Below, in pieces: positions 15,984-39,327 of a stretch of 64,000 nucleotides of DNA; position 1 is the stretch's first letter; the number at the start of each line of letters is the position of its first letter. The DNA comes from Deltaproteobacteria bacterium (GTDB lineage Bacteria; Desulfobacterota; Deferrimicrobia; Deferrimicrobiales; Deferrimicrobiaceae). The stretch covers positions 10,368 to 74,367 of the forward strand of contig JBBIVQ010000005.1 of the NCBI GenBank assembly GCA_037439645.1. The letters are read 5' to 3'. The translations under genes were made by a program, and so were the position numbers. The notes below the pieces were generated by a model. The model saw only the letters and a list, made by a program, of their open reading frames with translations. It searched no databases and was not told the DNA's origin.

Positions 15984-18149
15984 ATGTCCACGCTGAAACG
16001 GGAATTCCCCGTCCGCATCGCCATCTACGCCCTCATTGTGCTGTCCTTCGCCAACCTCAATGCGATCGTCGACATGGTGCTCCACCCGGAGATTCCGTAT
16101 TTCGATGAGGAACATCTGCTCGTAGGCGGGATCGCCGCCGTCGCGTTGGCCTCCGTTCTCGGCGTGCTCGAAACGTACCTGGCCCGGCGAAGGAAGTCCG
16201 AAGCGAACGTCCGGGAGAGCGAGGAACGGTACCGAACCCTGTTCCAAACGTCCAGCGACGGGATATTTCTTCTCTCCTTCGACGGGCAACTTCTCGACGT
16301 GAACGATTCGTACGCCCGGATGCACGGATACCGGGCGGAAGAGATGGTCGGGATGAATTTGCGGGATTTCGACACGGCCCGGACCACGCAAATGGTCCCT
16401 GACCGGATGAGGCGGATCCTGACGGGGGAGTCGTTGATCTTCGAAGTGGAACACCACCACAGGGACGGGCACGTGTTCCCGCTCGAGGTGTCCGCGCACA
16501 AGGTCACTTTCGGTGGGAAATCCTGCATCCAGTCCATTCACCGCGACATCACCGGCCGCAAGCGGATCGAAAAGGAGTTGGAGGAGAGCCGGGGACGGCT
16601 GATCGAGGCGCAAAAAGTCGCGCACCTCGGTTACTACGCCCTGGATGTGGCGTCGGGGATCTGGACCAGCTCGGAGATCCTCGACGTCGTGTTCGGCATC
16701 GGTCCCGATTACCGGAGGGACGTCGATGGATGGGCGCTGCTCGTTCACCCGGAAGATCGCCGGGGGATGGTGGAGTACTTCCGCAACGAGGTCCTCTCGG
16801 AAAAGGGGTCGTTCGATCGCGAGTACCGGATCGTCAGGAAATCGGACAACTGCGTCCGGTGGGTCCACGGATTGGGCAAGGTGGAGCGCGACTCCGCAGG
16901 CCGTCCCGTCCGGATGCACGGGACGATCCAGGACGTCACGGAGCGGAAGCGGGCGGAGACGGAGAAACTGGACCTGGAGCTGCAGATCCAGCAGGCGCAG
17001 AAACTCGAAAGCCTCGGCGTGCTCGCCGGGGGGATCGCCCACGATTTCAATAACCTCCTGATGGTCGTGCTGGGACACTCCGACCTGGCCTTGAAGGAGA
17101 TCTCCCCGATGTCGGCCGCCCGGGGGAGCATCACCGAGATTTCGACCGCGGCGCACCGCGCCGCCGACCTGTGCCGGCAGATGCTTGCGTACGCGGGCAA
17201 GTCCTCGTTCGCCCTGGAGCGGACGGACTTGAGGGAACTGGTCGATGAGATGGCGCACCTGCTCAAGACCGCGATCTCGAAGAAGGTGATCCTCAACCTG
17301 AACCTCGAACGGGGGCTGCCTCCCATCCAGGCGGACCCGAGCCAGCTGCGGCAGGTCGCGATGAACCTGATCCTCAACGCGTCGGAGGCGATCGGGGACC
17401 GGAGCGGGGCGATCACCGTGGCGGTAGGCGCCACGCGATGCGACGAGGAGTACCTTCGGAAAACGGAGTTGAAGGAGGACCTGGCCCCGGGTCTGTACGT
17501 GCACCTGGAAGTGACGGACACCGGGATCGGAATGGACGCGAAGACCCGGTCGCGGATCTTCGAGCCGTTTTTCACCACGAAGTTCACGGGCCGCGGGCTT
17601 GGACTGGCCGCCGTGCTCGGGATCGTCCGCGCGCACAAGGGGGCGTTGAAGGTGTACAGCGAACCCGGCAAGGGAACGACGTTCAAGATCCTCTTCCCGG
17701 CCCGGCCCGAGGGAAGCGAAGCCGACACGCAGGCCGGGGGCTCCCCTCCGGTCGATTGGCGCGGGAAAGGGACGATCCTGCTGGTGGACGACGAGGAAAG
17801 CCTGATCGCACTGGGCGCGAGAATGCTGGAAGCCCTCGGGTTCACCGTGCTGACGGCGCCGGACGGTGCGCGGGCGGTGGAGCTCTACCGCGCGCGGGGA
17901 AAAGAGATCGACCTCGTCCTGATGGACCTGACGATGCCGCACATGGACGGCGCGGAAGCGTTCGGGGAACTGCGTCGGCTGAACCCCGACGTCCGTGTCG
18001 TCCTCGCCAGCGGGTACAGCCACGAGGACATCGCGGCGCGATTCGCGGGGAAGGGCCTTTCCGGGGTATTGCAGAAGCCGTACACCCTTGCGAAATTGCG
18101 GGAGTCCCTTTCCGTGCTCACGGCGGAAGGTTCCGGCGGGAAAAGGTGA
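15984..18149 (+). CDS. Hybrid sensor histidine kinase (two N-terminal TM helices, two PAS domains, HisKA, HATPase_c, C-terminal receiver domain)
   Basis: Contains the PAS motif ERYRTLFQTSSDGIFLL, the H-box GGIAHDFNNLL, the G-boxes DTGIGM and GLGLAAV, and a receiver domain (LLVDDE...LMDLTMP). ATG at 15984 lies inside the long ORF 14508..18149, whose upstream part was rejected. Confidence 0.9.
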   Translation: MSTLKREFPVRIAIYALIVLSFANLNAIVDMVLHPEIPYFDEEHLLVGGIAAVALASVLGVLETYLARRRKSEANVRESEERYRTLFQTSSDGIFLLSFDGQLLDVNDSYARMHGYRAEEMVGMNLRDFDTARTTQMVPDRMRRILTGESLIFEVEHHHRDGHVFPLEVSAHKVTFGGKSCIQSIHRDITGRKRIEKELEESRGRLIEAQKVAHLGYYALDVASGIWTSSEILDVVFGIGPDYRRDVDGWALLVHPEDRRGMVEYFRNEVLSEKGSFDREYRIVRKSDNCVRWVHGLGKVERDSAGRPVRMHGTIQDVTERKRAETEKLDLELQIQQAQKLESLGVLAGGIAHDFNNLLMVVLGHSDLALKEISPMSAARGSITEISTAAHRAADLCRQMLAYAGKSSFALERTDLRELVDEMAHLLKTAISKKVILNLNLERGLPPIQADPSQLRQVAMNLILNASEAIGDRSGAITVAVGATRCDEEYLRKTELKEDLAPGLYVHLEVTDTGIGMDAKTRSRIFEPFFTTKFTGRGLGLAAVLGIVRAHKGALKVYSEPGKGTTFKILFPARPEGSEADTQAGGSPPVDWRGKGTILLVDDEESLIALGARMLEALGFTVLTAPDGARAVELYRARGKEIDLVLMDLTMPHMDGAEAFGELRRLNPDVRVVLASGYSHEDIAARFAGKGLSGVLQKPYTLAKLRESLSVLTAEGSGGKR

Positions 18150-18154
18150 CGCCT

Positions 18155-18168
18155 CCGCCGGACGGCGG
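18155..18168. terminator. Short GC hairpin between convergent genes (possible bidirectional terminator)
   Basis: ccgcc-ggac-ggcgg lies between the histidine kinase stop and the VIT transporter stop. Confidence 0.3.
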
Positions 18169-18186
18169 GGGGTGTCCCGTGGTCGT

Positions 18187-18882
18187 CTACCCGATCCATC
18201 GCGCGATGCCGAATGCGGCGGTCGCGGCGATGCCCCCGATCCCGACGGTCTGTAGCCCGCCGATCAGCGGCCGGATCCCCGTGAGCCGCCCCTTGACGGC
18301 TCCGAACACGAAGAGGGCGAGCAGCGTGACCGCCGCGGAGATCGCAAGGCCCATGAGCACGTTGTCCGTCGTCATGTACGGTGCCAGGGGCACCAGTCCA
18401 CCGACGACGTAGGACAAGCCGATCGTCAAGGCGCTCCTCACGGCCCTTTTCGGATCGGGCAATTCGAGTCCCAGCTCGTATCGCATCATGAAATCCACCC
18501 AGCGGTCGGGGTCGGCGCAGATGGCGGAGACCACCGGGGCGGCCTGCTCGTCTTCCAGGCCGTAACCGCGGAAGACGGTGGCGACCTCCAGCCTCTCGGC
18601 GGCCGGCATCTCCCGGATTTCCCGGAACTCCCGCGCGCGTTCGGAGGCGTAGTGCTCCCGGTCCGTCCGTGCCGCCAGGTATCCCCCCAGCCCCATCGCG
18701 ATCGAACCCGCGGCGATTTCGGCCAATCCGGCGACCACGATCACGCCGGTGGAACTCACGGCCCCCGACAATCCGGCCGCCAGCGCGAACGGAACGGTCA
18801 GCCCGTCCGCCATCCCGATGACGATGTCGCGAACGGACGCCGATGAAGTGAAGTGATTCTCCGCGTGGATGGTGCCCCGCAT
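18187..18882 (-). CDS. VIT1/CCC1-family iron/manganese transporter
   Basis: ENHFTSSASVRDIVIGMADGLTVPFALAAGLSG is the VIT-family signature. Start was chosen at the internal M (MRGTIHAENHF), so the longer ORF to 19050 was trimmed. Confidence 0.8.
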   Translation of the reverse strand: MRGTIHAENHFTSSASVRDIVIGMADGLTVPFALAAGLSGAVSSTGVIVVAGLAEIAAGSIAMGLGGYLAARTDREHYASERAREFREIREMPAAERLEVATVFRGYGLEDEQAAPVVSAICADPDRWVDFMMRYELGLELPDPKRAVRSALTIGLSYVVGGLVPLAPYMTTDNVLMGLAISAAVTLLALFVFGAVKGRLTGIRPLIGGLQTVGIGGIAATAAFGIARWIG

Positions 18883-19244
18883 GGTCACACCTTCCCTTCC
18901 CCCATCCGCCACCCGACGATCCGTGCCGCCGCGACGACCGCCCCGAACGCGTGGACGGTGACCGGGCCGAACAGGTGGAGCTCGGGTTGCGGGAAATACG
19001 GGATCATATCCTCTCCTGCATTGGACGGGTTCAAGCCGGGGAAGGTTCAACGCATGCGAGGATCTCTCCTCCCGCCGCGGAATCTAATATAGATTGAATA
19101 CACCTGCCGCTTGAAGGAAAACGGATAGATGCGATGAGATCGCCAATCAAGGAGTGGACGGGCTTCGCCCGAAGGAACCGTGGCGCGGCCCGCGGGGGTG
19201 GAACGTCGTTGAGGAAGGTGGAGGGAAACCCCGGTGACTTCGGG

Positions 19245-20471
19245 ATGCCGAATCGGATGAGCCGCGACATCGTCACCCTTTTCGCCGCGCGCATCATCCG
19301 GCTCTTCTGCTACGGGTTCCTCTCGGTCGTCCTCGCGCTCTATCTCGCGCGGATCGGCCTTTCCGAGCGGCAAATCGGCCTTCTCTTCACCCTCACCCTC
19401 GCGGGCGATGCGGGAATTTCTCTCCGGCTCACCACCACCGCGGACCGTTTCGGACGCAAGCGCACGCTGATCATCGGCGCGCTGCTGATGTCGGGCGCGG
19501 GCGTCGTTTTCATCGTCACCCGGGACGTTCTCTTCCTGCTCGCGGCCGCGATCGTCGGAGTCATCAGCCCGAGCGGGAATGAGATCGGTCCATTCCTGTC
19601 CGTCGAACAGGCCGCCTTGACGCAACTCCTGCCGGGCGAAAAACGCACGCATACGTTCGCATGGTACAACCTCGTCGGATCCTTCGCGACCGCGCTGGGC
19701 GCACTGTCGGGCGGCTGGCTGGCCCGGGCGCTGCAGCTCCGCGGGATGTCCGAGCTGGATGCGTATCGCGGTGTCCTGGCGGGATACGCGTTGGGCGGAT
19801 TCGTCCTCGTCATCCTTTTCCTTCAACTCTCGCGGGACGTTGAAGTGAAAACGGCTTCCCGGGCCGAGCCCGCCCGACGGGTGCTCGGCCTCCATCGCTC
19901 CCGCAACGTGGTGATCCGGCTCAGCGCGCTGTTCGCATTGGACGCCTTCGCGGGCGGGTTGATCGTGCAGGCCATGATCGCTTACTGGTTCCACGTTAAA
20001 TTCGGAATCGACGCGGGCGTCATCGGGACGATCTTCTTCGGGGCGAATCTGTTGGCGGGGATCTCGGCATTGATGGCGGCGAGGCTTGCCGCCCGGATCG
20101 GCTTGATCAACACGATGGTCTTCACGCACGTCCCGTCGAATGTCTTGCTGATCCTTGTTCCCCTCATGCCGACGCTTTCATTGGCGATCACCGTTTTGCT
20201 GCTGCGATTCAGCATCTCGCAGATGGACGTGCCGACGCGGCAATCGTATACGATGGCGGTGGTATCGCCCGATGAACGTTCCGCCGCTTCGGGCGTCACC
20301 AGCATTGCGCGATCCGTCGGCGCGTCGATATCCCCCTCCCTTACAGGGTTATTGTTCGCCGTTCCGGCGTTGCTGAGCGCCCCCTTTTACCTGGCCGGCG
20401 GATTGAAAATCGTCTACGACATCCTCCTCTATCGTGGTTTCCGCACGATGAAAGCCCCCGAGGAGAAATGA
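19245..20471 (+). CDS. MFS transporter
   Basis: 12-TM profile, with an MFS-like motif between TM2 and TM3 (DRFGRKRTLIIG). A GGAGGG Shine-Dalgarno lies upstream. An alternative GTG start exists at 19233. Confidence 0.8.
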   Translation: MPNRMSRDIVTLFAARIIRLFCYGFLSVVLALYLARIGLSERQIGLLFTLTLAGDAGISLRLTTTADRFGRKRTLIIGALLMSGAGVVFIVTRDVLFLLAAAIVGVISPSGNEIGPFLSVEQAALTQLLPGEKRTHTFAWYNLVGSFATALGALSGGWLARALQLRGMSELDAYRGVLAGYALGGFVLVILFLQLSRDVEVKTASRAEPARRVLGLHRSRNVVIRLSALFALDAFAGGLIVQAMIAYWFHVKFGIDAGVIGTIFFGANLLAGISALMAARLAARIGLINTMVFTHVPSNVLLILVPLMPTLSLAITVLLLRFSISQMDVPTRQSYTMAVVSPDERSAASGVTSIARSVGASISPSLTGLLFAVPALLSAPFYLAGGLKIVYDILLYRGFRTMKAPEEK

Positions 20472-20571
20472 ACCGCGTCCTGCGATGGCCGATGAGAAGG
20501 AACCGGCGCGGCCGATTCCGCATCGTACCGGGAGCGAACAGCAGCCCGCAGGATGAGAGGAGGCGACTGCA

Positions 20572-21273
20572 TTGAAAAGGGTGAAAGGTGCGGTCATGTT
20601 CGGCGCGATCGTCATGCTTTCCGTGGCGATGCAGGCGCCGATCGTATCGGCGAAAGGGGATGAGGCGGTACGGGTCAAGACGGCCGCCGAGGTGATGGAA
20701 AAAATCATGGAGATCCCGGAGAAGGCGGTCCCTCCCGCGCTGCTGGCGGACGCCCACGGGATCGCGATCATCCCGGGAGTCGTGAAGGTCGGGTTCGTGT
20801 TGGGGGGCCAGTTCGGGCGCGGGGTTCTCCTCGTCAGGGGAAAGGGCGGGTCCTGGAGCGATCCCGTGTTCGTCACCCTGATGAGCGGGAGCGTCGGGTG
20901 GCAGATCGGGGCGGAGTCCACCGACTTCGTCGTCGTGTTCAAGACGCCGAGGAGCGTCGATGGGATATTGAAGGGGAAATACACCCTCGGGGCGGATGCG
21001 GGGGTGGCGGCCGGTCCGGTGGGGCGATTGGCGAAAGCGTCTACCGACGTCGAGTTGAAGGCGGAGATCTACTCCTATTCGAGAAGCCGGGGCCTCTTCG
21101 CCGGGGTATCCCTGGAGGGATCCTCCCTGCAAGTGGACGACAAGGGCAACGCCGCGTTCTACGGAACCGAGGAGATTCGTCCCTCCGCGATCGTGACGGG
21201 CAAGGGGATCAAAACGCCTCCCGGAGCGGAGATGCTGAAGAAGGTGGTGGGGAAGTACGCGCCGCCGGAATGA
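20572..21273 (+). CDS. SYLF/Ysc84 (DUF500) lipid-binding domain protein with signal peptide
   Basis: Signal peptide is followed by the SYLF motifs HGIAIIPGVVKVGFVLGGQFGRGVLLVRG and GWQIGAESTDFVVVF. TTG start with a GAGAGGAGG Shine-Dalgarno. Confidence 0.75.
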   Translation: MKRVKGAVMFGAIVMLSVAMQAPIVSAKGDEAVRVKTAAEVMEKIMEIPEKAVPPALLADAHGIAIIPGVVKVGFVLGGQFGRGVLLVRGKGGSWSDPVFVTLMSGSVGWQIGAESTDFVVVFKTPRSVDGILKGKYTLGADAGVAAGPVGRLAKASTDVELKAEIYSYSRSRGLFAGVSLEGSSLQVDDKGNAAFYGTEEIRPSAIVTGKGIKTPPGAEMLKKVVGKYAPPE

Positions 21274-21285
21274 TCCGTGCCGTGC

Positions 21286-21312
21286 GGGAGGCGGGGGAGC
21301 GCCCTGCCTCCC
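21286..21312. terminator. Hairpin (gggaggc...gcctccc) between convergent SYLF and DJ-1 genes
   Basis: 7-bp GC stem with a 13-nt loop in the 45-nt convergent gap. Confidence 0.3.
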
Positions 21313-21318
21313 CCGTCG

Positions 21319-21846
21319 CTATTCGCTTTCGCCGGACAGCGCCTGGAGGATCGTGCGGCAGAAGGCCGGCAGATCCTCCGGCTTCCGGGACGTGACCAGG
21401 TTGCCGTCCCGGACGACTTCGCGGTCTTCGTAGATCGCACCCGCGTTCACCAGGTCGTCCTTGATGGCGAAAAAGCAGGTCGCCTTCCGTCCTCGCAGCA
21501 CGTCCGCCGAAACCAGCATCCACCCGCCGTGGCAGATCGCCGCCGCCACCTTTCCTCTCGCGAACACGCCGCGGACCAGGTCCACCATCGCCTTGTGACG
21601 CCGCATCCGGTCGGGCGCGTAGCCCCCGGGGACGATCACCGCGTCGAAGTCGGAGGCATTCACTTTCCCGGCCACCGCATCGGGAGTGACCGGGTATCCG
21701 TGCTTGGAGACGTACCCCGCCGCGCCACCCCCCACGATGGTCACCTTCGCGCCCGCTTCGCGGAACCGGTACACGGGGTACCACAACTCGAGATCCTCGT
21801 AGAGATCTTCCGCCAGTACGGCGATGTGTTTCGATTTCAGGTTCAT
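21319..21846 (-). CDS. DJ-1/PfpI family protein (type 1 glutamine amidotransferase-like; intracellular protease/deglycase family)
   Basis: IAVLAEDLYEDLEL...AICHGGWML includes the nucleophile-elbow cysteine. Confidence 0.85.
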   Translation of the reverse strand: MNLKSKHIAVLAEDLYEDLELWYPVYRFREAGAKVTIVGGGAAGYVSKHGYPVTPDAVAGKVNASDFDAVIVPGGYAPDRMRRHKAMVDLVRGVFARGKVAAAICHGGWMLVSADVLRGRKATCFFAIKDDLVNAGAIYEDREVVRDGNLVTSRKPEDLPAFCRTILQALSGESE

Positions 21847-21972
21847 CGTTTTCCTCCTCCGGACCGGGTCAGGCGGTTTTTTCCGAGTAATCCATCATCC
21901 CCTGGAAATCGACGAGGACGACCGTAACGTTGGATGCCGGAACGGTTCGCAAGGTGGCGATCTCCGAACGGA

Positions 21973-23085
21973 TCATACCCGGCCGGTCCGTGTGCCGGAT
22001 GGGGCCGGTTCCACCACCGCTCCATCGGGGGTGTCCCTCACCCACCACCCGGAAGCGAGGATCCGTCGACGAAGGGCGTCCGCCATGGCCCACTCTTTCC
22101 GCGCCCGTGCTTCCTCCCTTTCCCCGATGAGGCGGAGCGTTTCGGGGGGCACCTCGGAATTCCCGGGAAAGCCACGCGCGTCGGGTACCGGGTTGGAGAG
22201 GGCCGCCGCCGCGGCCTCCCATACGTCGGCAGCCACATCGCCCCTCCCTGAAGCCCGCCGGAAGGGGCCCAATTCCGGGAGGGGAAAGGTTTGCGGGGCG
22301 ATGTAAACCGACTCCCGCCCGGAGCGGATCAATGTTACGCTTCCCGCCCCGAAGACCTCCGCCCGATCCGCCGACGGGTCGATCACCAGGGCCGTGTTCT
22401 CGTCAACCCCGACGATCGTCCGATCCCCTTCGATGAGGCCGCGCAAAACTTCGAACCGTTCCCGCCCCATGTAGCACCGGCTCGTATCGAGTTCCCTTCC
22501 TCCGTCGGCGTTGTTCCAATGGGGGACGAGGACGAGGGAGAGACCGTGCCGACCCATCAGGTCGAGACCGGGTTCCCAGCGCGCGTCCTCTCCGACCTTG
22601 AAGATCTCGTACACGGGAAGCGCCAGCGCCCCCGCGGCGATCATCGCCGCGCTGGCGAGGATGGTCGTGCCGCCGAGCAGGTGCCGCGCCGTCACGCCGT
22701 GCCAGGCCAGGCTTCCGCGGAGCTGGCGTACGGCGTAGGTGGGACTTCCCGGTCCGAGAAACACAAGGTCCGACCGCAGCACCCTTTCCAGCAGCGCGGG
22801 ATCGTCGGGGCTGAAGGCGGTCCCCCGCCGGCGAGCGGGAAGCGATTCGACGACGGGTGAATACGCTGCCAGGCTTCGACGGAGGAATTCGACGACCCGA
22901 CCCGCTACCCGCGCAGAGTTCGGCTCGAAACCCGCCGGGGTCTCCAGCACGGCGACTCGCGGTGAAACCGGCCGCCCCATCCGGCGCACAAGCGTTTCGT
23001 AGACGCGGCCTCCCACCGGCGATATCTCGCCCGAGCCGAAGAGAACCACCGGACCCGGACCCGGGCGGTTCGACAAGGTTTTCAT
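21973..23085 (-). CDS. Hypothetical protein: peptidase S51/cyanophycinase-like domain with a C-terminal cysteinyl-tRNA-synthetase-like tail
   Basis: N-terminus VVLFGSGEIS...LVFLGPGSPTY...GTTILASAAMIAAG is S51-like. C-terminus REEARARKEWAMADALRRRILASGWWVRDTPDGAVV resembles the CysRS C-terminal region. Confidence 0.55.
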   Translation of the reverse strand: MKTLSNRPGPGPVVLFGSGEISPVGGRVYETLVRRMGRPVSPRVAVLETPAGFEPNSARVAGRVVEFLRRSLAAYSPVVESLPARRRGTAFSPDDPALLERVLRSDLVFLGPGSPTYAVRQLRGSLAWHGVTARHLLGGTTILASAAMIAAGALALPVYEIFKVGEDARWEPGLDLMGRHGLSLVLVPHWNNADGGRELDTSRCYMGRERFEVLRGLIEGDRTIVGVDENTALVIDPSADRAEVFGAGSVTLIRSGRESVYIAPQTFPLPELGPFRRASGRGDVAADVWEAAAAALSNPVPDARGFPGNSEVPPETLRLIGEREEARARKEWAMADALRRRILASGWWVRDTPDGAVVEPAPSGTRTGRV

Positions 23086-23154
23086 CCGGCATCCTTCCGC
23101 TTCGGTCGAATCGCGGGAATCGGACCGGTTCGTCCCTGCGGGATGACGTGGAAC

Positions 23155-23667
23155 TCAGAGCTTGCGCAGTGCCGCTTCCCGTTTCCGGTCCTTCTTCTTC
23201 GCCTTGTGTCCCTCCCCTTTTTTCGCCCCGTGCCGTGCCGACGGATCCTCGTCGGTGGATCCTTTTACGGATTCGTACAGGAACCCGAAGATCCGGTCAC
23301 CGAAGTCGTCGCACGAGACCACGGTTACGGAGCGGGAGGAGAGCGTTCCTGCAAGGCCCCGGTCGGAGGTGACGACCACCGTGCCGGACGGTGCGTTTCC
23401 GGCCATTTCGCGGATCACGTCGTCGGCCGATTCGAAGGCGCGGGAGAAGAGAGCCGTTCCCCCCTTGAACGCGGACCGGTTCCGTTCCCGCGCTCCTGCT
23501 CCCTGCCCGTCGAAGATGACGGTCAGGTGGAACCCCTTTTTCCCGGCATAGTCCGCAAGGATCGCGCACATCTCCTTCCGCCCGGCGTCCGACACGGGAT
23601 CTTCCTCGAGCGGAAGCGCGCCGGAACGGGCGAGGTTGTACCCGTCGACGAGAAGGTGAGCGCCCAT
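23155..23667 (-). CDS. NYN-domain (YacP-like) predicted RNA-binding nuclease
   Basis: HLLVDGYNLARS...LTVIFDGQ is the YacP/NYN motif. The tail is lysine-rich. Confidence 0.8.
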   Translation of the reverse strand: MGAHLLVDGYNLARSGALPLEEDPVSDAGRKEMCAILADYAGKKGFHLTVIFDGQGAGARERNRSAFKGGTALFSRAFESADDVIREMAGNAPSGTVVVTSDRGLAGTLSSRSVTVVSCDDFGDRIFGFLYESVKGSTDEDPSARHGAKKGEGHKAKKKDRKREAALRKL

Positions 23668-23955
23668 TCAACCCCCCATGCCTTCTTCCACTTCCCGCCA
23701 TGCATCTCAGAGTATCTTACATTGCAGTGTGTCGTGTTCCGACATGTTCTTCATGGAATGGTTCCTGTCGGGACGAACCTCCTTTCCGTCGGGATCCGGT
23801 GCCGTTCCCTTCGTGCGTGCACCTTGTTCCTCATGACGGATGAAGTCTCCCCCGGACTGTTTTCGAGGGAATGCCGACTCTCGGGAGTTTCCACCCACCG
23901 TTTCTCCGGAGCATTCACCCGGGGGACCCGTCACATGGGTGTGTCGGGGAGGAGG

Positions 23956-23984
23956 TTGACGCCGGAAACCCCTTGCAGTAGGAT
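23956..23984 (+). promoter_or_regulatory. Sigma-70-like promoter for the tRNA gene (TTGACG-N17-TAGGAT)
   Basis: The -35 and -10 boxes have 17-nt spacing and sit about 15 nt upstream of the tRNA 5' end, in an AT-richer patch. Confidence 0.5.
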
Positions 23985-24000
23985 ACTTTTCCTCACGGAC

Positions 24001-24077
24001 GCGCCCTAGGGCGCGTCCGATAGAGCACTTGACTACGAATCAAGTGGCCAGAGGTTCGAATCCTCTAGGGCGCGCCA
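24001..24077 (+). tRNA. tRNA-Arg (anticodon ACG) with encoded CCA; D-arm is non-canonical (possible pseudo or atypical tRNA)
   Basis: Folded by hand: acceptor gcgccct/agggcgc, anticodon stem cttga/tcaag with loop cTACGaa (anticodon ACG), T-arm agagg-ttcgaat-cctct, discriminator G then CCA. The 5' end sits inside a perfect 22-bp palindrome, and there is an extra nucleotide before a weak D-stem. Confidence 0.6.
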
Positions 24078-24218
24078 TTCTCCCGTTTCCGCGGCATTGC
24101 GAGGATTCGAAGCGAGCCCGCCGCCGACCGATGAGGGAGGAAAAGCCGGCATGGATGCCGGCGTCAGGCGGGGGAGGGGAGGCTACGCAGCCGGAGCCAG
24201 GATGGCGGAGGCGTAGTA

Positions 24219-24240
24219 GCCGAATCCTCTAGGCGCGCCA
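24219..24240 (+). repeat. Direct repeat of the tRNA-Arg 3' end (20/21 nt identical to 24056-24077); att-like remnant
   Basis: gccgaatcctctaggcgcgcca matches ttcgaatcctctagggcgcgcca with one G deletion. It lies 143 bp downstream of the tRNA. Confidence 0.6.
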
Positions 24241-24355
24241 CTTTTTCCTTTTATAATCAACATCTTAGGTAGCGCCATTTTGGCGCTCCGCCCTTGGCGA
24301 TCTGTCCGGTTGCGCGGGGGTTGCGGTTTTTGCCGAACTTTTTTCCCGATCCAGA

Positions 24356-25747
24356 TCATCGGTGTGTGCTCTCTCCCTCCGCAAGGACCACCTTTTCCCG
24401 TTTCGCCAGGTCGAGCATCGCGGGGGTGAAGCCGCTGCGGCTGAACAGGACGAACCGTTCGTTTCTCTTGCCGGCGTGCCAATCCACCAGTTCCGATTTC
24501 CTGCGAAGGTCCTGGTATACGTCCGTTCCGACCTTTCTGTTGCTCCACTTGCACTCCCCGAACCAGATGGCGCGGGATTCCTCGTCGAGCGCAACCAGAT
24601 CGATCTCTTCGTTCTTCGCCCACCAGCGGCCGAGGGAGGTGACCGGTACGTTCTCCCGTCTGGCCATGTCAAGGAAGATCTCCCGGGAGATCGATTCGTA
24701 AGCATTGCCTACGTGCTGGTCGAATGTGGCCTCGATTTGCTTGAGGACGTAACCCTCGTTGCCGAGTTCCAATCTTCCCCGGTTCGGGAGGACGTACTTG
24801 AACCAAAAAGCGAAGAAGCGGTCGTGCAGTCGGTACAGGCCGAGTCGGCTCTTGTCGGGAGACTTCTCGGTGACGGGAACCTCCTTCTCGACAAACCCCA
24901 GACTCCTCAGAATGTCGAGGTAACGGGAGAGGTGTGCCTTGTCGAATCCCGTGTCGTTCATGATCTCGGAGAGCTTTCTCTTTCCTTGGGAGATGGCCCG
25001 GAGGATGACATAGTAATCCCGTGGTTCACGGAGTTCCTCACGCAGAAGGAATTCCACCTCGTTGTAGAGGAAGGTGTTCCGGGCAAGGATCAGCTCGGAG
25101 ATGTTTCGGAAGACGCTCTCGTGCGGCCGGACCTGCTCCAGGTAGGCCGGGACGGACCCGAAGGAGGAGTAGATGGCCGCGCGTTTTTTCAGGTCCGCCT
25201 CGGGGAAGAATTCCTTCAAGGCGCTGAATTTGAGCTCCTCGACCTTCAGGGAACCGGTCCGGCGGCCGTAAAGGGGAGCTTTCGAGAACAGGACTTCGCG
25301 CTCCATCATCCCGACGCTTGACCCGAGCAGTATCAGGAACAGCTTTGTGTCCTTCAGGTGCGTGTCGATTCCTTTTTGGAAAATGGAAGAGATTGCCCGG
25401 GCGGCACTCACAAGGTAGGGGAATTCATCGATGACGAGTACCAGGCGGGCCTTCGCGCTCTTTTCCCGGATGTAGCGGAAGAACTGCTCCCAGTCCCGGA
25501 AGCCCCCTTCGATCAGGATCCTGTCCTTGAAATATTCCCCGACGCATCTACCGAGGTTTTTCAGTTGCTCCACCTCGGCGACGGTATCCGCAAGGAAATA
25601 GGCGGCCGGCTTGTTCTGGATGAACTCACGGACGAGCCGGGTTTTGCCCACCCGGCGCCTGCCGTAGAGGGGGATGAACCGGAAAGACGGCTGTTCGAAT
25701 TCCCGCTCCAGGAACCCGAGTTCCTCCTGTCTGTCGACGAACCGCAT
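24356..25747 (-). CDS. ATP-binding protein of the 'archaeal-type ATPase' family (AAA+ P-loop N-terminal domain with a DUF234-like C-terminal domain)
   Basis: Walker A GRRRVGKT and Walker B LVLVIDEFPYL. Start was chosen at the internal MRFVDRQEELGFL. The upstream region is AT-rich with TATAAT-like boxes. Confidence 0.75.
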   Translation of the reverse strand: MRFVDRQEELGFLEREFEQPSFRFIPLYGRRRVGKTRLVREFIQNKPAAYFLADTVAEVEQLKNLGRCVGEYFKDRILIEGGFRDWEQFFRYIREKSAKARLVLVIDEFPYLVSAARAISSIFQKGIDTHLKDTKLFLILLGSSVGMMEREVLFSKAPLYGRRTGSLKVEELKFSALKEFFPEADLKKRAAIYSSFGSVPAYLEQVRPHESVFRNISELILARNTFLYNEVEFLLREELREPRDYYVILRAISQGKRKLSEIMNDTGFDKAHLSRYLDILRSLGFVEKEVPVTEKSPDKSRLGLYRLHDRFFAFWFKYVLPNRGRLELGNEGYVLKQIEATFDQHVGNAYESISREIFLDMARRENVPVTSLGRWWAKNEEIDLVALDEESRAIWFGECKWSNRKVGTDVYQDLRRKSELVDWHAGKRNERFVLFSRSGFTPAMLDLAKREKVVLAEGESTHR

Positions 25748-25918
25748 GGCTTCCTCCGATAAGGTGTCGATATGGATTGCGGTATGTATAATCCTGTTTA
25801 GTCTAAACATGATTATACTGATCCAGCGCGATCCTGCAATGGGTTGTTCGGGGTGAATTGCGCATGGTATGGCATAAGTTCGACAATATCGAACTATTAC
25901 CATGTATTGTCTATTTTG

Positions 25919-26119
25919 TTATTGGGCGGGGATGGCTATTTCTCTATTGGTATCAATGGCTTCCACATTGTGGGCGTCCACGTTCCACCCCGGGTCGTCG
26001 AGGGCGTTGACCGCCTTCCGGTTCGCGCCGGGGATCAGGTGTCCGTAGGTGTCCACGGTGATCTGGATGGAGTGGTGCCCGAGCTGCTCCTTGACGTAGA
26101 CCAGGGATTCTCCGTGGAA
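25919..26119 (-). pseudogene. Tyrosine recombinase/integrase C-terminal fragment (about 65 aa, catalytic-Tyr region only)
   Basis: The minus-strand translation GKTFHGESLVYVKEQLGHHSIQITVDTYGHLIPGANRKAVNALDD ends at the stop at 25919-25921. No N-terminal or core-binding domain is present upstream. Confidence 0.7.
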
Positions 26120-26370
26120 CGTTTTTCCGAAACGTACTCCTGTCGTTTTTGTTCGGCGAGCTGGGCTGCCTCATAATTGGCAACGGGTTTTCCCTTTTCA
26201 GCAAGTTCCTTCGCGATGATATCGGCGTTTACGAACGGCAAACCGCTTGGCGCAATGAACAGTTCATGAAACGTGGTCTTGCCGGCGCCGTTCGGCCCAG
26301 CCAGCACGACCAGAACGGGTTTTTTGTCCGATCCGGATGTCAGGAGTTTGCGCAGGGCCGGGACGATCAT
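26120..26370 (-). pseudogene. Zeta-toxin-like / P-loop kinase N-terminal fragment (about 83 aa), broken at the junction with the integrase fragment
   Basis: MIVPALRKLLTSGSDKKPVLVVLAGPNGAGKTTFHELF... matches a zeta-toxin-like start. After EYVSEKR the frame becomes low-complexity nonsense. The integrase homology starts in another frame at the same point. Confidence 0.55.
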
Positions 26371-26798
26371 CGAGCGGCACGAACCGGAGTTGGGGCGAAC
26401 ACTCCGTCCTTGACCCGTCCGGAAGCCCTGGTTCCGTCAGGCATTATACGGATCACCTTCCCTGGATGGGCCGGGTCGGCTTCGTACACGGGGACGCCGG
26501 GGGCGAGGATCTTTGCTTTCACTGCATCGCGGTCCGGGGTCAGCATGATCTGCGTCACCGTGGAGACGATTTTTGACTCGACACTTTGGGCGCTGACCTG
26601 CTTGAGAAAGAACGGAAGATTTTCCTTGAGAACCTTGACCTCTGCGTTCCCGAGGATTGCTTCCGCGGCCTGTCCGATCTTTACCCAATGCTCGACTTGG
26701 CCCGCCATGGACCGGTCCGATACCTGCGCCTCGCTCCTTACGTCACGGATGACCACCTGATCGGAAAGCTTTACCACCATCTGTTTTCCCGTCTGCAT
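26367..26798 (-). CDS. Hypothetical protein coupled to the zeta-like gene (ATGA overlap); possible antitoxin partner
   Basis: ATG at 26798 follows a GGGGGG Shine-Dalgarno. The stop overlaps the start of the zeta-like fragment. No recognisable DNA-binding motif. Confidence 0.5.
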   Translation of the reverse strand: MQTGKQMVVKLSDQVVIRDVRSEAQVSDRSMAGQVEHWVKIGQAAEAILGNAEVKVLKENLPFFLKQVSAQSVESKIVSTVTQIMLTPDRDAVKAKILAPGVPVYEADPAHPGKVIRIMPDGTRASGRVKDGVFAPTPVRAAR

Positions 26799-27027
26799 GA
26801 CACCCCCCCATGGGCGAGATTCGATTGAGCATCGAAGGTAACTAAATGCTACCATGCATTCTCAGTCGCAGCAAGGGGGGAGGAGCAGAAATGTACCCAG
26901 ACGGCAGGATTGGTCCAAATCGTAAACGATAAAAAGCCTCCTTTTGAACTTGTATTCAGCAGGGATTCCCGGAAGGTGGAGTTATCGGGCGACAGGAACT
27001 GTCGCATCGGTCCCGTATGCTCTTCAC

Positions 27028-27264
27028 ATGAAGACGGGTGACCAAGTGGTTATCACCCTGGTGTGCTTGGGGTGCCGCACGGAGCGGAGCATGCGGATCC
27101 CCCGCGAGCGTGGGATCACGCCCGGCAAGTACCTCTGGGAATGCTTCGCGTGGCAGGAGAAGCGGTACGGGGTATTGGGCAGCGGCTGTAAGAGGGATCC
27201 CGGAGTGGATCGGGCGCGTCCCGGCGGCCACGGGCAACCGGAAAACGGACAGGAGGAAGGATGA
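27028..27264 (+). CDS. Small Cys-containing hypothetical protein (about 78 aa)
   Basis: MKTGDQVVITLVCLGCRTERSMRIPRERGITPGKYLWECFAWQEKRYG. Its stop overlaps the start of the next gene (ATGA). The Shine-Dalgarno is weak. A TTG-start extension to 26944 is possible. Confidence 0.35.
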   Translation: MKTGDQVVITLVCLGCRTERSMRIPRERGITPGKYLWECFAWQEKRYGVLGSGCKRDPGVDRARPGGHGQPENGQEEG

Positions 27265-28205
27265 CCACGGAAAATCGCATGACCACGCTGGCGGACCTTA
27301 CGATCGGCAACCCGAAGACGGTTCTGAACCTGACGGCGGTCCCTCTCTCGGGGAATCCTGCCTCCACGCTCGACTACCTGCTGATCGACGAGGCCCTCGA
27401 GACGAAGAAGGTGATCGTCGAGGAGGTGAGCGAGGGCGGGTCGGTCCCGGAGCTGCGGATGACGAACTTCGCGAACCGGTGCGTCCTGATCGTCGACGGC
27501 ACGGAGCTGGTCGGCGCCAAGCAGAACCGGATCGTCAACGCGTCGTTCCTCATCCCGCAGGAGTCGGTCACGAGGATCCCCGTCTCCTGCGTGGAGCAGG
27601 GGCGATGGGGGTACAAGGGGCGGGAGTTCGGCGCGAGCAAGCACTTCTCGCCGCACAGGATCCGGCGGGACAACGCCGAGTTCCACAAGACCACCCTCAA
27701 GCAGAATCGCGGCTACGCCACCGAGCAGGGGAAGGTCTGGGAGCACGTGGCGAACATGTCCCACGAGATGGCAGCGCCCACGATGACCGGCGCAATGAAC
27801 GACGTCCTCGAGCAGCGGGAGGGCTCCATCGAGGAGTACCGGAAGGGGATCTCCCTGGACGGGGCCGGGACCGGGGCAGCCTTCTTCGTCAACGGGATCT
27901 TCCAGGGGATCGAGCTGTTCGACCGGGAGGCGACGTTCGCGAAGATGTTCCCCAAGCTCCTCTCCGGGGTCGCCGTGGAGGCGATGATGGCGCAGGGGCA
28001 AAAGCTTTCCGCCCGCCGGGCCAAGACCCCGGAAGAAACCATGAAGTACGTAAGTCGGATCCTGGCCGAGGTGTCGAAGTCGCTCTTCGAGAAGTTCGAG
28101 CCGGTGGGGATGGGCGAGGATTGGCGGTACGACGGGAAGCGATCGTTCGGGAAGGCGCTTCACTACGGCGCGGACCTCATTCACTTCTCTGCGTTCGGGA
28201 AATAA
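27261..28205 (+). CDS. Hypothetical protein (314 aa), no family confidently recognised
   Basis: A long ORF with coding-like composition, coupled to the upstream small ORF and followed by a strong terminator hairpin. The N-terminal region reads TVLNLTAVPLSG...LLIDEALETKKVIVEEVSEGGSVPEL. Confidence 0.65.
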   Translation: MTTENRMTTLADLTIGNPKTVLNLTAVPLSGNPASTLDYLLIDEALETKKVIVEEVSEGGSVPELRMTNFANRCVLIVDGTELVGAKQNRIVNASFLIPQESVTRIPVSCVEQGRWGYKGREFGASKHFSPHRIRRDNAEFHKTTLKQNRGYATEQGKVWEHVANMSHEMAAPTMTGAMNDVLEQREGSIEEYRKGISLDGAGTGAAFFVNGIFQGIELFDREATFAKMFPKLLSGVAVEAMMAQGQKLSARRAKTPEETMKYVSRILAEVSKSLFEKFEPVGMGEDWRYDGKRSFGKALHYGADLIHFSAFGK

Positions 28206-28220
28206 TCAGAGGGAAACAGG

Positions 28221-28249
28221 GGAGTGGGCCGTGAAATCGGCCCACTCCC
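28221..28249 (+). terminator. Intrinsic terminator hairpin (10-bp stem)
   Basis: ggagtgggcc-gtgaaatc-ggcccactcc followed by cggTTgaTT. Confidence 0.6.
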
Positions 28250-28319
28250 GGTTGATTCGGAAATAGAATGGGGGTCTACGGCTTCCGGGGGCCGAAGTCT
28301 CGCGCCATGGAGGAACAGG

Positions 28320-29270
28320 ATGGCGAAGGGGATTCCTCGTCCGATGAACAAGCCCGCCATGATGGATTGGGCGCTGCGGCTTCTGCGGTTGCTCAACGAA
28401 AAGAAAGTCCTCACCTCCCGGGTCGTGGCGGAGGCGTTCGACGTCAACATCCGCACCGCGCAGCGATACCTCCTGTACCTCTCCGACCTGCCGTGCGTGG
28501 TGGTCGACGAGGAGAAGCACACCTACACGCTCACCTCGGACTACATCATCACCGACAAGATCCTGAACACCTCCGAGATGGCCCTGGTGTGCGCCCTGAT
28601 CGACTACGCCACCCACATCTTCGGAAAGGAGCACTCGAAGTTCCTGGCGGGGCTGAAAAACAGGATCTTCCGGATGCCGGACGTCTACCAGATCGTCAAG
28701 GACGATGCGATCGACATGGAGAAGGTGGCCGGCGTCCAGTTGGCGCTGGAGCGGCACATCAAGAGCCGGGAGGTGATCTCCTTCCTCTACCGGCGTTCCG
28801 GGAAGCGGTACACGGTGGAGCCGTGCAAGATTCTCTACCACGGCGGGTTCTGGTACGTGGTGGCGATGCACGACGGGATCGTGAAGAAGTTCCTCCTCGA
28901 CGTCATCGAGGGAATCCGCGCCACGGGGCGGGCTTGCGGGGAGATCCCGGAGTCCGTCCGGAAGACGTTGTCGGATGCACAGAGTATCTGGTTCCAGGAC
29001 AAGGCGCCGGACCGGGTGACGGTGGAGTTCGACGCGGAGGTTGCCCACTTCTTCGAACGGAAGAGCATTTTCCCCCGCCAGGAGATCGTACGGAAAGGGA
29101 AGGACGGGAAGATCGTCGTCTCCTTCGACGTCCACAACGACATGGACTTCCGGGAGCACATCGCCCGCTGGATGCCGTATTTCAGGGTACAATCCCCCGA
29201 TTTTTACCGAGAATATTTCTGTAGGGTAACCCGTGAGGCTCTAGACAAGAACGTTTCAAGGGTAAATTGA
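28320..29270 (+). CDS. WYL-domain transcriptional regulator with N-terminal HTH
   Basis: HTH region MMDWALRLLRLLNEKKVLTSRVVAEAFDVNIRTAQRYLLYL and WYL core GGFWYVVAMHDGIVKKFLLDVIEG. A GGAGGA Shine-Dalgarno precedes the ATG at 28320. The upstream part of ORF 28224 was rejected. Confidence 0.8.
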   Translation: MAKGIPRPMNKPAMMDWALRLLRLLNEKKVLTSRVVAEAFDVNIRTAQRYLLYLSDLPCVVVDEEKHTYTLTSDYIITDKILNTSEMALVCALIDYATHIFGKEHSKFLAGLKNRIFRMPDVYQIVKDDAIDMEKVAGVQLALERHIKSREVISFLYRRSGKRYTVEPCKILYHGGFWYVVAMHDGIVKKFLLDVIEGIRATGRACGEIPESVRKTLSDAQSIWFQDKAPDRVTVEFDAEVAHFFERKSIFPRQEIVRKGKDGKIVVSFDVHNDMDFREHIARWMPYFRVQSPDFYREYFCRVTREALDKNVSRVN

Positions 29271-29342
29271 GAATATAGGTTTGTCGCCGAGGGCCCATGA
29301 TCCTCACCATTCATCGCGGATCGAAGCAGATCGGAGGGCATC

Positions 29343-29921
29343 GTGAGGAGAAGCGTCGAGGTGCCGGTGGGATTCCAGCTCCGGATCGAATTGAGGGAGG
29401 TCCTGCCGCCGGTCTGGCGGCGCTTCCTGGTCCCCGGGTCGATCACCCTCCCCGGCCTCCATCGCGTGATACAGGATGTCATGGGGTGGGAAAACAGCCA
29501 TCTCCACCTCTTCCGATTCGGAAAGAAGGAGTACGGGATTCCCGATCCCGAGTACCCCTCGGAGATGCGGAACGAACGGGGCAGGCGCCTGCGGGAATTT
29601 CTCCGCGACGAGGGGGAGACGTTCGGGTACCAGTACGACTTCGGCGACAACTGGGAGCATGACGTCGTTGTCGAGCGGATCGTGACCGGCGCCGAGGTGA
29701 CGGAGGCTACGTGCTTGGAGGGGGAGAGGGCTTGCCCGCCGGAGGATGTCGGAAGTCCCTCCGGGTACATGGAGTATCTGGAAGCCTTGAAGGATCCTTC
29801 CCATCCGGACCACCAGCAGATGGTGGAGTGGAGGGGTCCCTCGTTCGACCCCGAGCGGTTCGACCCGGGAAGGATCAACCGGCGGTTGTCCCTATTGTCC
29901 CGAAGGCGTCGGCGGGCGTAG
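29343..29921 (+). CDS. pRiA4b ORF-3-like (PRiA4_ORF3 / IS1096-TnpR-passenger family) protein
   Basis: FQLRIELREVLPPVWRRFLVPGSITLPGLHRVIQDVMGWENSHLHLF is a family motif. GTG start with a GGAGGG Shine-Dalgarno. Confidence 0.75.
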   Translation: MRRSVEVPVGFQLRIELREVLPPVWRRFLVPGSITLPGLHRVIQDVMGWENSHLHLFRFGKKEYGIPDPEYPSEMRNERGRRLREFLRDEGETFGYQYDFGDNWEHDVVVERIVTGAEVTEATCLEGERACPPEDVGSPSGYMEYLEALKDPSHPDHQQMVEWRGPSFDPERFDPGRINRRLSLLSRRRRRA

Positions 29922-30050
29922 ATGCCGGGCTACATGACAATAACGTCAAGTAAGGGAATTTAGTTAAGTTACCCATTCGATATCCCGCCTACTGTCAACG
30001 AAATGTCAACTAATGTCAAATGGCATTTAGAGAGTCTGAAAAGATATCGG

Positions 30051-34744: not shown

Positions 34745-34763
34745 GTGTGCCTTCCACCATATC

Positions 34764-34781
34764 GTCAATTAACGAATTGAC
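34764..34781. promoter_or_regulatory. Perfect inverted repeat GTCAATT-AACG-AATTGAC upstream of arsR (candidate ArsR operator); a second palindrome CCCGGA-ATA-TCCGGG sits at 34829-34843 nearer arsD
   Basis: Both palindromes lie in the 120-bp divergent arsR/arsD intergenic region. Confidence 0.4.
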
Positions 34782-34866
34782 ATTCCGTACCCGTGAAGCG
34801 ATAATGCGACAGGTACATATTACACGTTCCCGGAATATCCGGGCAAGGAGGCGGATCTTGAGAAAG

Positions 34867-35157: not shown

Positions 35158-35222
35158 GTGCACCCTCTCGAAATAATATCGACGTTCCCGGTGCTTCAAT
35201 CGATTTGCGAGAGGGTACACTG

Positions 35223-35405: not shown

Positions 35406-35488
35406 TGCCCCCCCGGCCGCGGCGGTCGCTGCGGGTGAGATGGGCAATACCGAAACGACGAATCCCGAAAAATGAGGGGTTGCCGACC

Positions 35489-38514: not shown

Positions 38515-38689
38515 CCCATAAAGATATCGAACATGGAATAAGGTGGGGGGAGATCCGGTTGCGCCGGGGCTGCGGCGGTTGCGGAAATCATGGCGCATTC
38601 CGGGCATGTCCTGGATAGACAACTGGGTCGCGCTCATTTGGTACCTTGAAATTCCCCCACCTGCCGGCGAGGATTCGTCCGGACCTTCC

Positions 38690-39327
38690 TTGAACGGGAT
38701 ATCCCCCGGCTCGGAATCCGGGTTCCTTCGGCAACGCTTCGCCGGTTCTGGGCCATGCTGGGCCACGCCCACGGCCAGGTCTGGAACGCCGCGGAGTTCG
38801 CGCGTTCGTTCGGGGTCGGCGAGTCGACGGTGCGCCGATACCTGGACCTTCTGGCCGGGACCTTCGTCGTCCGCCAGCTCACGCCCTGGCACGAAAACCT
38901 GCGGAAGCGGCAGGGGAAGTCGCCGAAGATCTACTTTACCGACAGCGGGTTACTGCACACCCTGATGCAGACGGAAACGAGGGCGGCCATCCTTGAGCAC
39001 CCGAGGCTGGGCGCATCCTGGGAGGGGTTCGCCCTGCAGGAGGTCATCGCCCGATTCGGGGCCCGGCCAGAGGAGTGTTTCTTCCGGGCGACCCACGGCG
39101 GGGCGGAGCTCGATCTTCTGATCGTGAGGGGAAAGACGCGCCTGGGGTTCGAGTTCAAGAGAACGGATGCGCCTCGCATGACGCCGTCCATGAGATCCGC
39201 CCTGTCGGATCTCCGCCTCGATACCTTGCATGTGGTCCACGCCGGCGAGCACCTGTTCTCGTTGGGGGAAAGGACCCGGGCGGTCCCTATCGGGGGACTG
39301 TTCGATGAGATCCGGCGGCTGAAATAG
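38690..39327 (+). pseudogene. DUF4143-domain C-terminal fragment of an AAA-family ATPase (N-terminal ATPase domain missing)
   Basis: RRFWAMLGHAHGQVWNAAEFARSFGVGESTVRRYLDLLAGTFVVRQLTPWHENLRKRQGKSPKIYFTDSGLLH matches DUF4143. Upstream remnants are scattered across frames. Confidence 0.6.

Follow-up and report, generated by a model that had tools for sequence, protein, structure and literature searches.

At the tRNA-Arg(ACG) gene of the window, by which we mean the whole analysed stretch of 64 kb, two unusual features meet: a partial direct copy of the tRNA 3' end lies a short distance downstream of the gene, and the 5' part of the gene is built into a perfect palindrome. The explanation that we consider probable as a whole is that (i) the displaced copy is a relic att core at a hotspot of island integration, and (ii) the palindrome is a template-switch-type error or an unfixed variant. 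On the sequence comparison, the palindrome is unrelated to the repeat and to integration; the two features are independent, because the sister MAG L001 (GCA_037445515.1) has the same spacer and repeat together with a canonical D-arm. The coordinates of the features are collected in Table 1.

Table 1. Features of the tRNA-Arg(ACG) locus and the adjoining island DNA, with positions in the window.
Feature	Positions	Strand	Basis
Sigma-70-like tRNA promoter (TTGACG, 17 nt spacer, TAGGAT)	23956..23984	+	promoter scan
Perfect zero-spacer palindrome, 24 nt, arms CGGACGCGCCCT and AGGGCGCGTCCG	23996..24019	.	sequence reading and palindrome scan
tRNA-Arg(ACG) gene	24001-24077	+	ARAGORN; Rfam RF00005
Private 11-nt replacement tract AGGGCGCGTCC, tRNA positions 8-18	24008..24018	+	comparison with relatives
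Repeat copy 1, T-loop-to-CCA att core inside the tRNA, CGAATCCTCTAGGGCGCGCCA, 21 nt	24057..24077	+	sequence search
Spacer between the repeats, 143 nt	24078..24220	+	comparison with L001, L096, L016/L092, L049
Terminator-like hairpin GCCGGCAT(CC)ATGCCGGC, then TTTTCC on the minus strand	24145..24162	-	scan
Repeat copy 2 (DR2), CGAATCCTCTAGGCGCGCCA, 20 nt, one G missing	24221..24240	+	sequence search and relatives
Conserved island left end (attL-side arm), motifs GCGCCATTTTGGCGC and CCGGTTGCGCGGGGGTTGCGG	24241..24335	+	BLAST
Island cargo, ATPase_2/HTH/DUF234 protein	24356..25747	-	domain search and BLAST
Tyrosine integrase C-terminal remnant (…GESLVYVKEQLGHHSIQITVDTYGHL…), 64 aa and stop	25919..26115	-	homology; listed ORF 25919-26056
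Truncated zeta-toxin-like P-loop gene fused to the integrase remnant, and ParD-like antitoxin gene	26035..26855	-	
attR-like island arm, up to the anticodon-loop crossover (…CCCACCTGC)	38551..38664	+	alignment
5'-truncated DUF4143-family ATPase gene fused to the attR-like arm	38665..39327	+	

The tRNA gene proposed in the original prediction was confirmed by ARAGORN, which reports it as the sole tRNA of the window, and by the Rfam tRNA model RF00005, with which it scores 44.8 bits (gathering score, 29). The acceptor stem, the anticodon arm with a valid ACG anticodon, the T arm, and the encoded CCA are all intact. The D-arm, already described as non-canonical, is indeed broken: the Rfam alignment gives A8, one extra nucleotide, a mismatched D-stem, and no G18, and the canonical combination of a 4-bp D-stem, U8, A14, and G18-G19 is not found in this gene. 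The same combination is present in the orthologous alleles of L001 and 107 other sequences. The canonical allele of L001 scores 70.1 bits with the same model, the window allele thus costing the tRNA ~25 bits. Upstream of the gene, ~46 nt are kept in all related contigs, and BLAST similarity to 78 contigs starts at ~23955. An Rfam scan of positions 23000-25500 with E-values up to 10 returned the tRNA, some noise, and nothing else.

A perfect palindrome of 22 bp had been claimed for the 5' end of the tRNA; it is present (ggacgcgccctagggcgcgtcc, 23997-24018) and in fact gains one further pair on each side. Its centre falls between tRNA positions 7 and 8, the left arm being formed by 5 nt of the leader and the 5' strand of the acceptor stem, and the right arm by tRNA positions 8-19. 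This is the longest perfect palindrome of the window, and palindromes of at least 24 nt were reached in 1 of 50 Markov-1 simulation runs. The replacement tract is the reverse complement of the segment directly before it (GGACGCGCCCT, 23997-24007) at 11 of 11 positions, and the twelfth pair is made by a pre-existing C at 23996 and G at 24019. The window reads GCGCCCT-AGGGCGCGTCC-GATAGAGC and the sister MAG reads GCGCCCT-TAGCTCAGCTG-GATAGAGC, a length-neutral change with 9 substitutions in 11 nt.

The canonical D-arm was found in all 108 related sequences compared, and the palindromic allele in none of them. The sister MAG L001, found through the neighboring NYN/YacP protein, is ~99% identical to the window across 21032-24335 and has the leader, the tRNA body, and the 143-nt spacer in common with it, its second repeat being perfect and its D-arm canonical. 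A metagenome scan with a pattern in which the leader and the tRNA body were fixed and the 11 tract positions left free yielded 78 contigs with the same leader, 78 of 78 carrying TAGCTCAGCTG. The GTDB species representatives, scanned with the 59 nt of the tRNA 3' end, contributed 28 genomes with one copy each and the canonical allele in every case; most of them are labelled as Deferrimicrobiaceae, Deferrimicrobium, or "Deltaproteobacteria" MAGs, and their lineage is MBNT15 (PMC9386147). One contig on record encodes the exact NYN protein of the window, namely L089 in the independent Logan assembly of run SRR11582159. It is 100.000% identical to positions 17908-24007 (6100 nt, 0 mismatches, 0 gaps). 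Past 24007, the contig carries the canonical 11 nt and so differs from the window at 9 positions; agreement resumes at 24019-24025, after which the contig breaks off within the tRNA. L089 and the window may represent different strains or samples. The palindromic allele was absent from all 124 fetched loci and from the IMG/VR contigs. Synteny through the neighboring NYN/YacP gene was uninformative, since its homologs with ~75% identity have no adjacent tRNA.

The expected consequences for the tRNA are severe. When folded with a leader of ~10 nt, as implied by the conserved promoter, the window pre-tRNA is predicted to form a 10-bp hairpin between the leader and the 5' acceptor strand, with the acceptor stem absent (-42.2 kcal/mol), and the canonical pre-tRNA is predicted to adopt a cloverleaf-like fold. 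The window allele would therefore abolish both the D-arm and the cloverleaf. The tRNA-Arg(ICG) of bacteria is normally essential and decodes CGU, CGC, and CGA; for this reason, a fixed knockout of the tRNA-Arg(ACG) gene, which appears to be single-copy in 28 of 28 related genomes, would be severely deleterious.

The origin of the tract can be read against the ancestor given by the 108 canonical sequences: the ancestral bases have given way to a reverse-complemented copy of a neighboring segment, as in template-switch mutations. We infer one event of this type, in which a polymerase would have used the strand opposite the preceding 11 nt as its template for 11 nt before switching back in register, thereby replacing tRNA positions 8-18. 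Single switch-and-return template switches are formalised in the four-point model, and such mutations create perfect inverted repeats (PMC5453318); short-range template-switch mutations are also treated in PMC8794818. The classical bacterial quasi-palindrome correction is not directly applicable, because the arms of the canonical sequence are complementary at 3 of 12 positions only, that is, no near-perfect inverted repeat preceded the event, and no priming microhomology for the switch was found beyond the single G at 24019. A simple intramolecular fold-back is excluded, because the palindrome has zero spacer. Two other candidates were rejected: an inversion of the replaced segment, as the reverse complement of TAGCTCAGCTG differs from the new tract, and gene conversion from the tRNA 3' end or DR2, which accounts for 8-10 bases only and not for TCC.

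We consider it likely that the palindromic allele is an amplification, sequencing, or consensus error or else an unfixed variant, and not the working sequence of the organism. This is ranked above a real fixed mutation because the gene appears to be single-copy in all 28 related genomes and its fixed knockout would be severely deleterious. A length-neutral 11-nt switch-and-return has not been demonstrated for any known assembler or sequencing artefact, and we know of no standard artefact that yields exactly such a pattern. De Bruijn assemblers require reads with the allele, therefore real molecules that carried it probably existed.

The same need for read support also speaks for the next alternative, a genuine template-switch mutation fixed in vivo, by which the gene would have become a fresh pseudogene or a crippled gene, with CGU, CGC, and CGA decoded by another copy. 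We regard it as possible, though clearly the less probable of the two. The reverse-complement signature is the product expected of replication template switching (PMC5453318). The strain may also simply differ from its relatives: a second change lies 210 nt from the tract, where the window has lost a G of DR2 that L001 and L096 retain, and its exact island proteins are absent from the run with the canonical contig L089, which may thus come from another strain or sample. Against fixation stand the occurrence of the allele in none of the 108 relatives, including one that is 100% identical across 6.1 kb of flank, and the lack of another tRNA in the window in a lineage with one copy of this tRNA per genome (28 genomes). 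The loss of 25 bits and of the cloverleaf in a tRNA that is normally essential in bacteria argues in the same direction.

Turning to the repeat, the copying of the tRNA 3' end with one G deleted is real, but it is slightly shorter than the interval 24219-24240 originally proposed, the leading "tt" not being repeated. The chance expectation for such a match is 0.00-0.02. The arrangement includes an intact tDNA and a displaced fragment in the same orientation (24057-24077 vs 24221-24240, same strand), and the repeated block is an att core of the integrase type. To this extent the proposed attL/attR duplication holds; however, no island is enclosed by the two copies, because the interval between them is 143 bp long, has no ORF, and includes neither an integrase gene nor island-sized DNA. 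Moreover, the tRNA-spacer-repeat unit is itself conserved in the sister MAG and in a non-syntenic relative. Further copies had been expected to mark the distal boundary of the island. None was found in the 64-kb window, either with 19- and 20-mers at up to 3 mismatches or with a 23-mer at up to 4 errors, and hence no distal tDNA fragment closes an island starting at 24241 within this stretch.

The conservation of the unit was observed in L001, with 2 differences in the spacer, and in L096, in which the spacer is ~74-81% identical and no upstream synteny with the window was detected by tblastn. In both relatives, DR2 is a perfect 21-mer (21 of 21 in L096), unlike the 20-mer of the window, and both of these short-read contigs end just past DR2. 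A sensitive BLAST search with the right two-thirds of the spacer against the fetched loci and the window retrieved L001 only, L096 being found by the genome scan. The comparison of the window with L001 gives 31 differences in 2976 nt upstream (~1%), 2 in the 143 nt of the spacer, and 16-20 in the ~100 nt right of DR2, so that the step in divergence from ~1% to ~17-20% falls exactly at DR2. Because divergence jumps at this point, the DNA joined at DR2 differs between two near-identical strains. These alignments show that DR2 is the junction of a conserved tRNA-spacer unit with variable island DNA. Scans of IMG/VR for DR2 with its flank, for the spacer, and for the island-arm motif gave zero matches each.

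The spacer begins with ~55 nt that are similar both to the native tRNA flank in genomes of the L016/L092 type and to the flank distal to the L049 island. The native flank of the L016/L092 type runs on into an MscS-like gene and has no second repeat, and other relatives are differently occupied. The spacer also contains an inverted copy of a T-arm segment (GAGGATTCGAA, 24101-24111) and the terminator-like hairpin, which is preserved in L096 by a compensatory G/C swap. An 11-nt match of the spacer, GCGAGGATTCG, to positions 38667-38677 was dismissed as a chance event, since these positions code for a conserved motif, FVRTFLERD, of the DUF4143 gene.

As had been proposed, accessory DNA lies to the right of DR2. 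It has a conserved island left end, a tyrosine integrase in truncated form, genes for toxin-antitoxin and defence functions, and an ars operon, and its GC content is lower (falling from ~0.66 to 0.56-0.62 between 24000 and ~34000). Its left part is shared with islands adjacent to tRNAs at 95-96% DNA identity (24221-25958 with L047 and 24221-26115 with L077). The module 24273-26025 is also found away from tRNAs; the DUF234 module was rejected as an att-site diagnostic, as its homologs with 98% identity occur in contexts without a tRNA, in accordance with mobile cargo. The only integrase sequence is the remnant that lies outside the 143-bp interval: homology to the intact integrases of L077 and L061 ends at 26115, and the last ~65 codons are left (…HHSIQITVDTYGHL…). 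The accessory genes comprise those for the DUF234 ATPase, the ParD-like and zeta-like toxin-antitoxin proteins, ARPP-1, WYL, and PRiA4_ORF3, and those for ArsR, ArsD, ArsA, and an ACR3-type carrier (Pfam SBF family). In addition, an unannotated ORF precedes AbiEii, with which it possibly forms an AbiE pair. Look-ups of the exact DUF234 (two starts), ARPP-1, and AbiEii proteins of the window found none on record.

At the far side, the arm at 38551-38664 can be aligned to the sequence located ahead of the distal 47-nt tRNA copy in the islands of L056, L067, and L026. In the window, the 47-nt copy is missing after 38664, and the middle of a DUF4143 ATPase gene takes its place. By its sequence, this fusion (38665-39327) is an eroded distal boundary of at least one island, and the distal boundary of the island may lie further right. 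The left-end motif of the L056-type island was sought in the window and not found.

The wider comparison identifies tRNA-Arg(ACG) as a heavily used target of tyrosine-integrase islands in the MAGs of Deferrimicrobiaceae (MBNT15). The sequence 3' of the tRNA CCA varies among contigs in dozens of ways, and the tRNA with ~46 nt of promoter is constant. Complete insertions bracketed by tRNA 3' copies were found in L049 (10.8 kb), in L056 and L067 (3.8 kb, with a PRiA4_ORF3 gene 94% identical to window positions 29333-29932), and in L026, L079, and L113 (1.1-1.6 kb), and L084 has a bracketed relic of 160 bp. The repeats of the bracketed islands are 42-47 nt long and start from the anticodon loop, whereas the 21-nt repeat of the window starts from the T-loop. 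The T-stem and the anticodon are the two classical crossover classes, and regenerated tDNAs with displaced fragments as well as tandem arrays have been described (PMC4383910).

The left arm that follows DR2 in the window and in L001 lies directly 3' of the tRNA CCA in L022, L047, L061, L064, L066, L077, L085, L087, L102, L104, and L105, a set of at least 8 contigs from metagenomes and at least 3 genomes (L102, L104, and L105) to which L095 and L117 likely belong as well. At least 11 other contigs thus carry the element at this tDNA, and L016 and L092 have native-type flanks. In L077 and L061, the left arm is followed by cargo and then by an inward-facing tyrosine integrase, the L061 homolog matching PF00589 with an E-value of 7e-28.

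Taken together, DR2 would be an att core left at an island junction, and the DNA from 24241 to at least ~38664 would be a decayed mosaic of islands, assembled from a left arm of a common family, the DUF234 cargo, an integrase cut to ~65 codons, toxin-antitoxin and defence genes, the ars operon, and an attR-type arm without its tRNA copy. The decay of the islands and the junction at DR2 are visible in the alignments. The 143-bp spacer with DR2 would be an older relic that now lies between the tRNA and the island, so that islands turn over at DR2 and not in the tRNA itself. The relic may have arisen from a collapsed earlier insertion, as in L084, or from insertion at a secondary site, 143 nt downstream in the native flank. 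As the first ~55 nt of the spacer are native-flank-like, a collapsed island accounts for them no better than an insertion at a secondary site.

In an alternative reading that we think unlikely, the tRNA-spacer-DR2 arrangement would be a maintained decoy or secondary attB, its tRNA 3' copy preserved by selection or by repeated use, that diverts integration and excision from the essential single-copy tRNA. If true, it would explain why DR2 is perfect in the non-syntenic L096, where the spacer has diverged, and why turnover takes place exactly at DR2, with different island variants to its right in the window and L001; the ends of the short-read contigs of L001 and L096 just past DR2 are also consistent with it. 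On the other hand, the unit is present in three genomes only, two of them independent, and at least 11 other contigs have islands of this family inserted at the tRNA itself. The comparable short relic in L084 suggests that collapsed insertions are common here and that selection is not needed, and vertical inheritance with resetting by recombination would give the same pattern.

The relic att core, formed by integration apart from the palindrome, also fares better than the initial proposal that integrase recombination rebuilt the 5' part of the tRNA from the 3' acceptor strand, with the repeats as attL and attR. We consider this proposal very improbable, even though the locus is a real integration hotspot. 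Positions 8-15 (AGGGCGCG) are, as stated, identical to the 3' acceptor strand with the discriminator, but the match to the 3' end runs for only 8 nt (10 nt with the shared CT) and leaves TCC unexplained; the reverse complement of the adjacent leader and 5' acceptor strand covers all 11-12 nt, TCC included. The resemblance of AGGGCGCG to the tRNA 3' end exists only because acceptor strands are complementary by definition. Furthermore, the D-arm lies outside every att identity block at the hotspot, these blocks beginning at the T-loop (21 nt) or at the anticodon loop (46-47 nt) and never extending into the D-arm, the canonical D-arm occurs in 108 of 108 sequences, including the sister MAG with the same spacer and repeat, and the 143 bp between the repeats have no genes.

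Least probable of all is a functional tRNA with a non-canonical, lost D-arm: the gene is still called by ARAGORN and Rfam and its acceptor, anticodon, and T arms are intact, but the allele occurs in no relative, its sequence is wholly explained by copied adjacent DNA with signs of selection absent, and its 5' acceptor strand is sequestered in the predicted fold. In practice, neither a new kind of tRNA nor a scar of recombination should be seen in this odd gene. The private 11-nt lesion matters for any inference of the tRNA set or codon usage from this genome and needs verification against the reads.

Comparison with known systems places the two features in different classes. The palindrome resembles the products of template switching and quasi-palindrome correction (Ripley 1982; Dutra & Lovett 2006; Löytynoja & Goldman 2017, PMC5453318; Mönttinen & Löytynoja 2022, PMC8794818) in that (i) 9 substitutions in 11 nt are explained by one event, (ii) a tract is replaced by the adjacent reverse complement, yielding a perfect inverted repeat (hairpin), and (iii) the length is unchanged. 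It differs in the absence of a prior near-palindrome, and in that the event is read from an assembly and was possibly born in vitro or during assembly. If real, it would be a clean bacterial case of a perfect palindrome created de novo by template switching, with no quasi-palindromic precursor and inside an essential gene. The locus also shares with the tRNA fragments and pseudo-tRNAs of prokaryotic annotations (PMC9897764) a partial 3' copy next to mobile DNA and a low-scoring call that needs scrutiny, whereas the low scorer here is the real, orthologous full-length gene with a private lesion and not a displaced fragment.

The repeat and the island DNA belong with tRNA-integrated islands of the Islander type (Reiter 1989; Williams 2002, PMC100330; Hudson et al. 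2015, PMC4383910). The common features are an intact tRNA with a same-orientation 3' copy, a T-loop-to-CCA block (T-stem class, the other islands at this tRNA being of the anticodon-loop class with 46-47 nt), a tyrosine-integrase gene, accessory cargo, lower GC content, and tandem or decayed arrays at one tDNA. Unlike in typical islands, the copies in the window bracket 143 bp without an integrase and the island lies beyond the second copy; in addition, the integrase is truncated and the distal tRNA fragment is missing. For these reasons, an Islander-style caller would report no island here. Relics of att cores at island junctions are well known, and the present one comes from an uncultured clade. 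The locus documents a busy tRNA-Arg(ACG) hotspot in uncultured MBNT15/Deferrimicrobiaceae, with at least two integrase crossover classes and many decayed relics, and while the concept is already well known, this record is useful for island mapping.

An attR-type island arm stops precisely at the anticodon-loop crossover point, where it runs straight into a DUF4143 ATPase gene truncated at its 5' end; the 47-nt copy of the tRNA expected after this arm is absent. The fusion at 38664/38665 could reflect either a deletion or aberrant integrase action on a pseudo-site. To the right of the truncated gene lies a gene for a SNF2-family helicase of 936 aa, and therefore the accessory or defence-type region may continue beyond 38664. 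Two GGTTGCG-type motifs, shared between one island family (left arm) and another (right arm) and present in many related contigs, may be arm-type binding sites for integrase or excisionase.

Coordinates of the features in the window.
Feature	Position	Details
Inverted T-arm copy	24101-24111	GAGGATTCGAA; 24 nt past the tRNA end
Spacer hairpin	24145-24162	GC-rich; terminator-like on the minus strand
Second spacer stem	within 24181-24220	GGCTAC…GTAGCC
DUF234 ATPase module	24273-26025	
GGTTGCG-type motifs	24306-24326 and 38555-38585	CCGGTTGCGCGGGGGTTGCGG and CCGGTTGCGCCGGGGCTGCGGCGGTTGCGG
Integrase remnant, zeta-toxin-like ORF and ParD-like antitoxin gene	25919-26855	remnant and ORF in the same orientation
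Gene trio	27261-29921	ARPP-1, WYL-WCX, PRiA4_ORF3
Unannotated ORF	31313-31996	no Pfam hit
Unannotated ORF and AbiEii gene	31313-32828	overlapping
Arsenic-resistance cluster	34343-38514	ArsR (minus strand), ArsD, duplicated-domain ArsA, SBF-family (ACR3-type) carrier
attR-type arm	38551-38664	
DUF4143 ATPase gene	38665-39327	5'-truncated
SNF2-family helicase gene	39372-42182	

The DUF234 ATPase module recurs at 95-97% identity in other metagenome contigs (loci L118-L124) that carry no nearby tRNA, and thus moves independently of the att site; in one such contig it is adjoined by JetD_C/DUF2399 genes. A tyrosine integrase survives as a C-terminal remnant, fused to a P-loop ORF that is zeta-toxin-like and truncated; a ParD-like antitoxin gene precedes this ORF. 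The fusion is a deletion scar uniting two different elements.

The arsenic-resistance cluster lies within the island region, directly ahead of the attR-type arm. The unannotated ORF and the AbiEii gene that it overlaps possibly form an AbiE toxin-antitoxin pair, and both they and the ARPP-1/WYL-WCX/PRiA4_ORF3 trio probably represent defence or addiction cargo. The window's PRiA4_ORF3 gene shares 94% identity with one on a 3.8-kb island that occupies this tRNA in L056 and L067.

The spacer between the tRNA and the second copy of its 3' end (DR2) contains two potential stems. In the non-syntenic relative L096, the GC-rich hairpin is kept through one compensatory change. The stem immediately 5' of DR2 varies in its interior among genomes with pairing retained. 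Both comparisons cover two independent sequences. The T-arm segment TTCGAATCCTC also recurs in the spacer in inverted orientation; this copy is conserved in L096 and on the distal side of the 10.8-kb island of L049, and less well in flanks of the native (L016) type. The NYN/YacP gene is located just downstream of the tRNA in some relatives (loci L023 and L051) and upstream of it in the window; within the clade, both flanks of the tRNA are rearranged.
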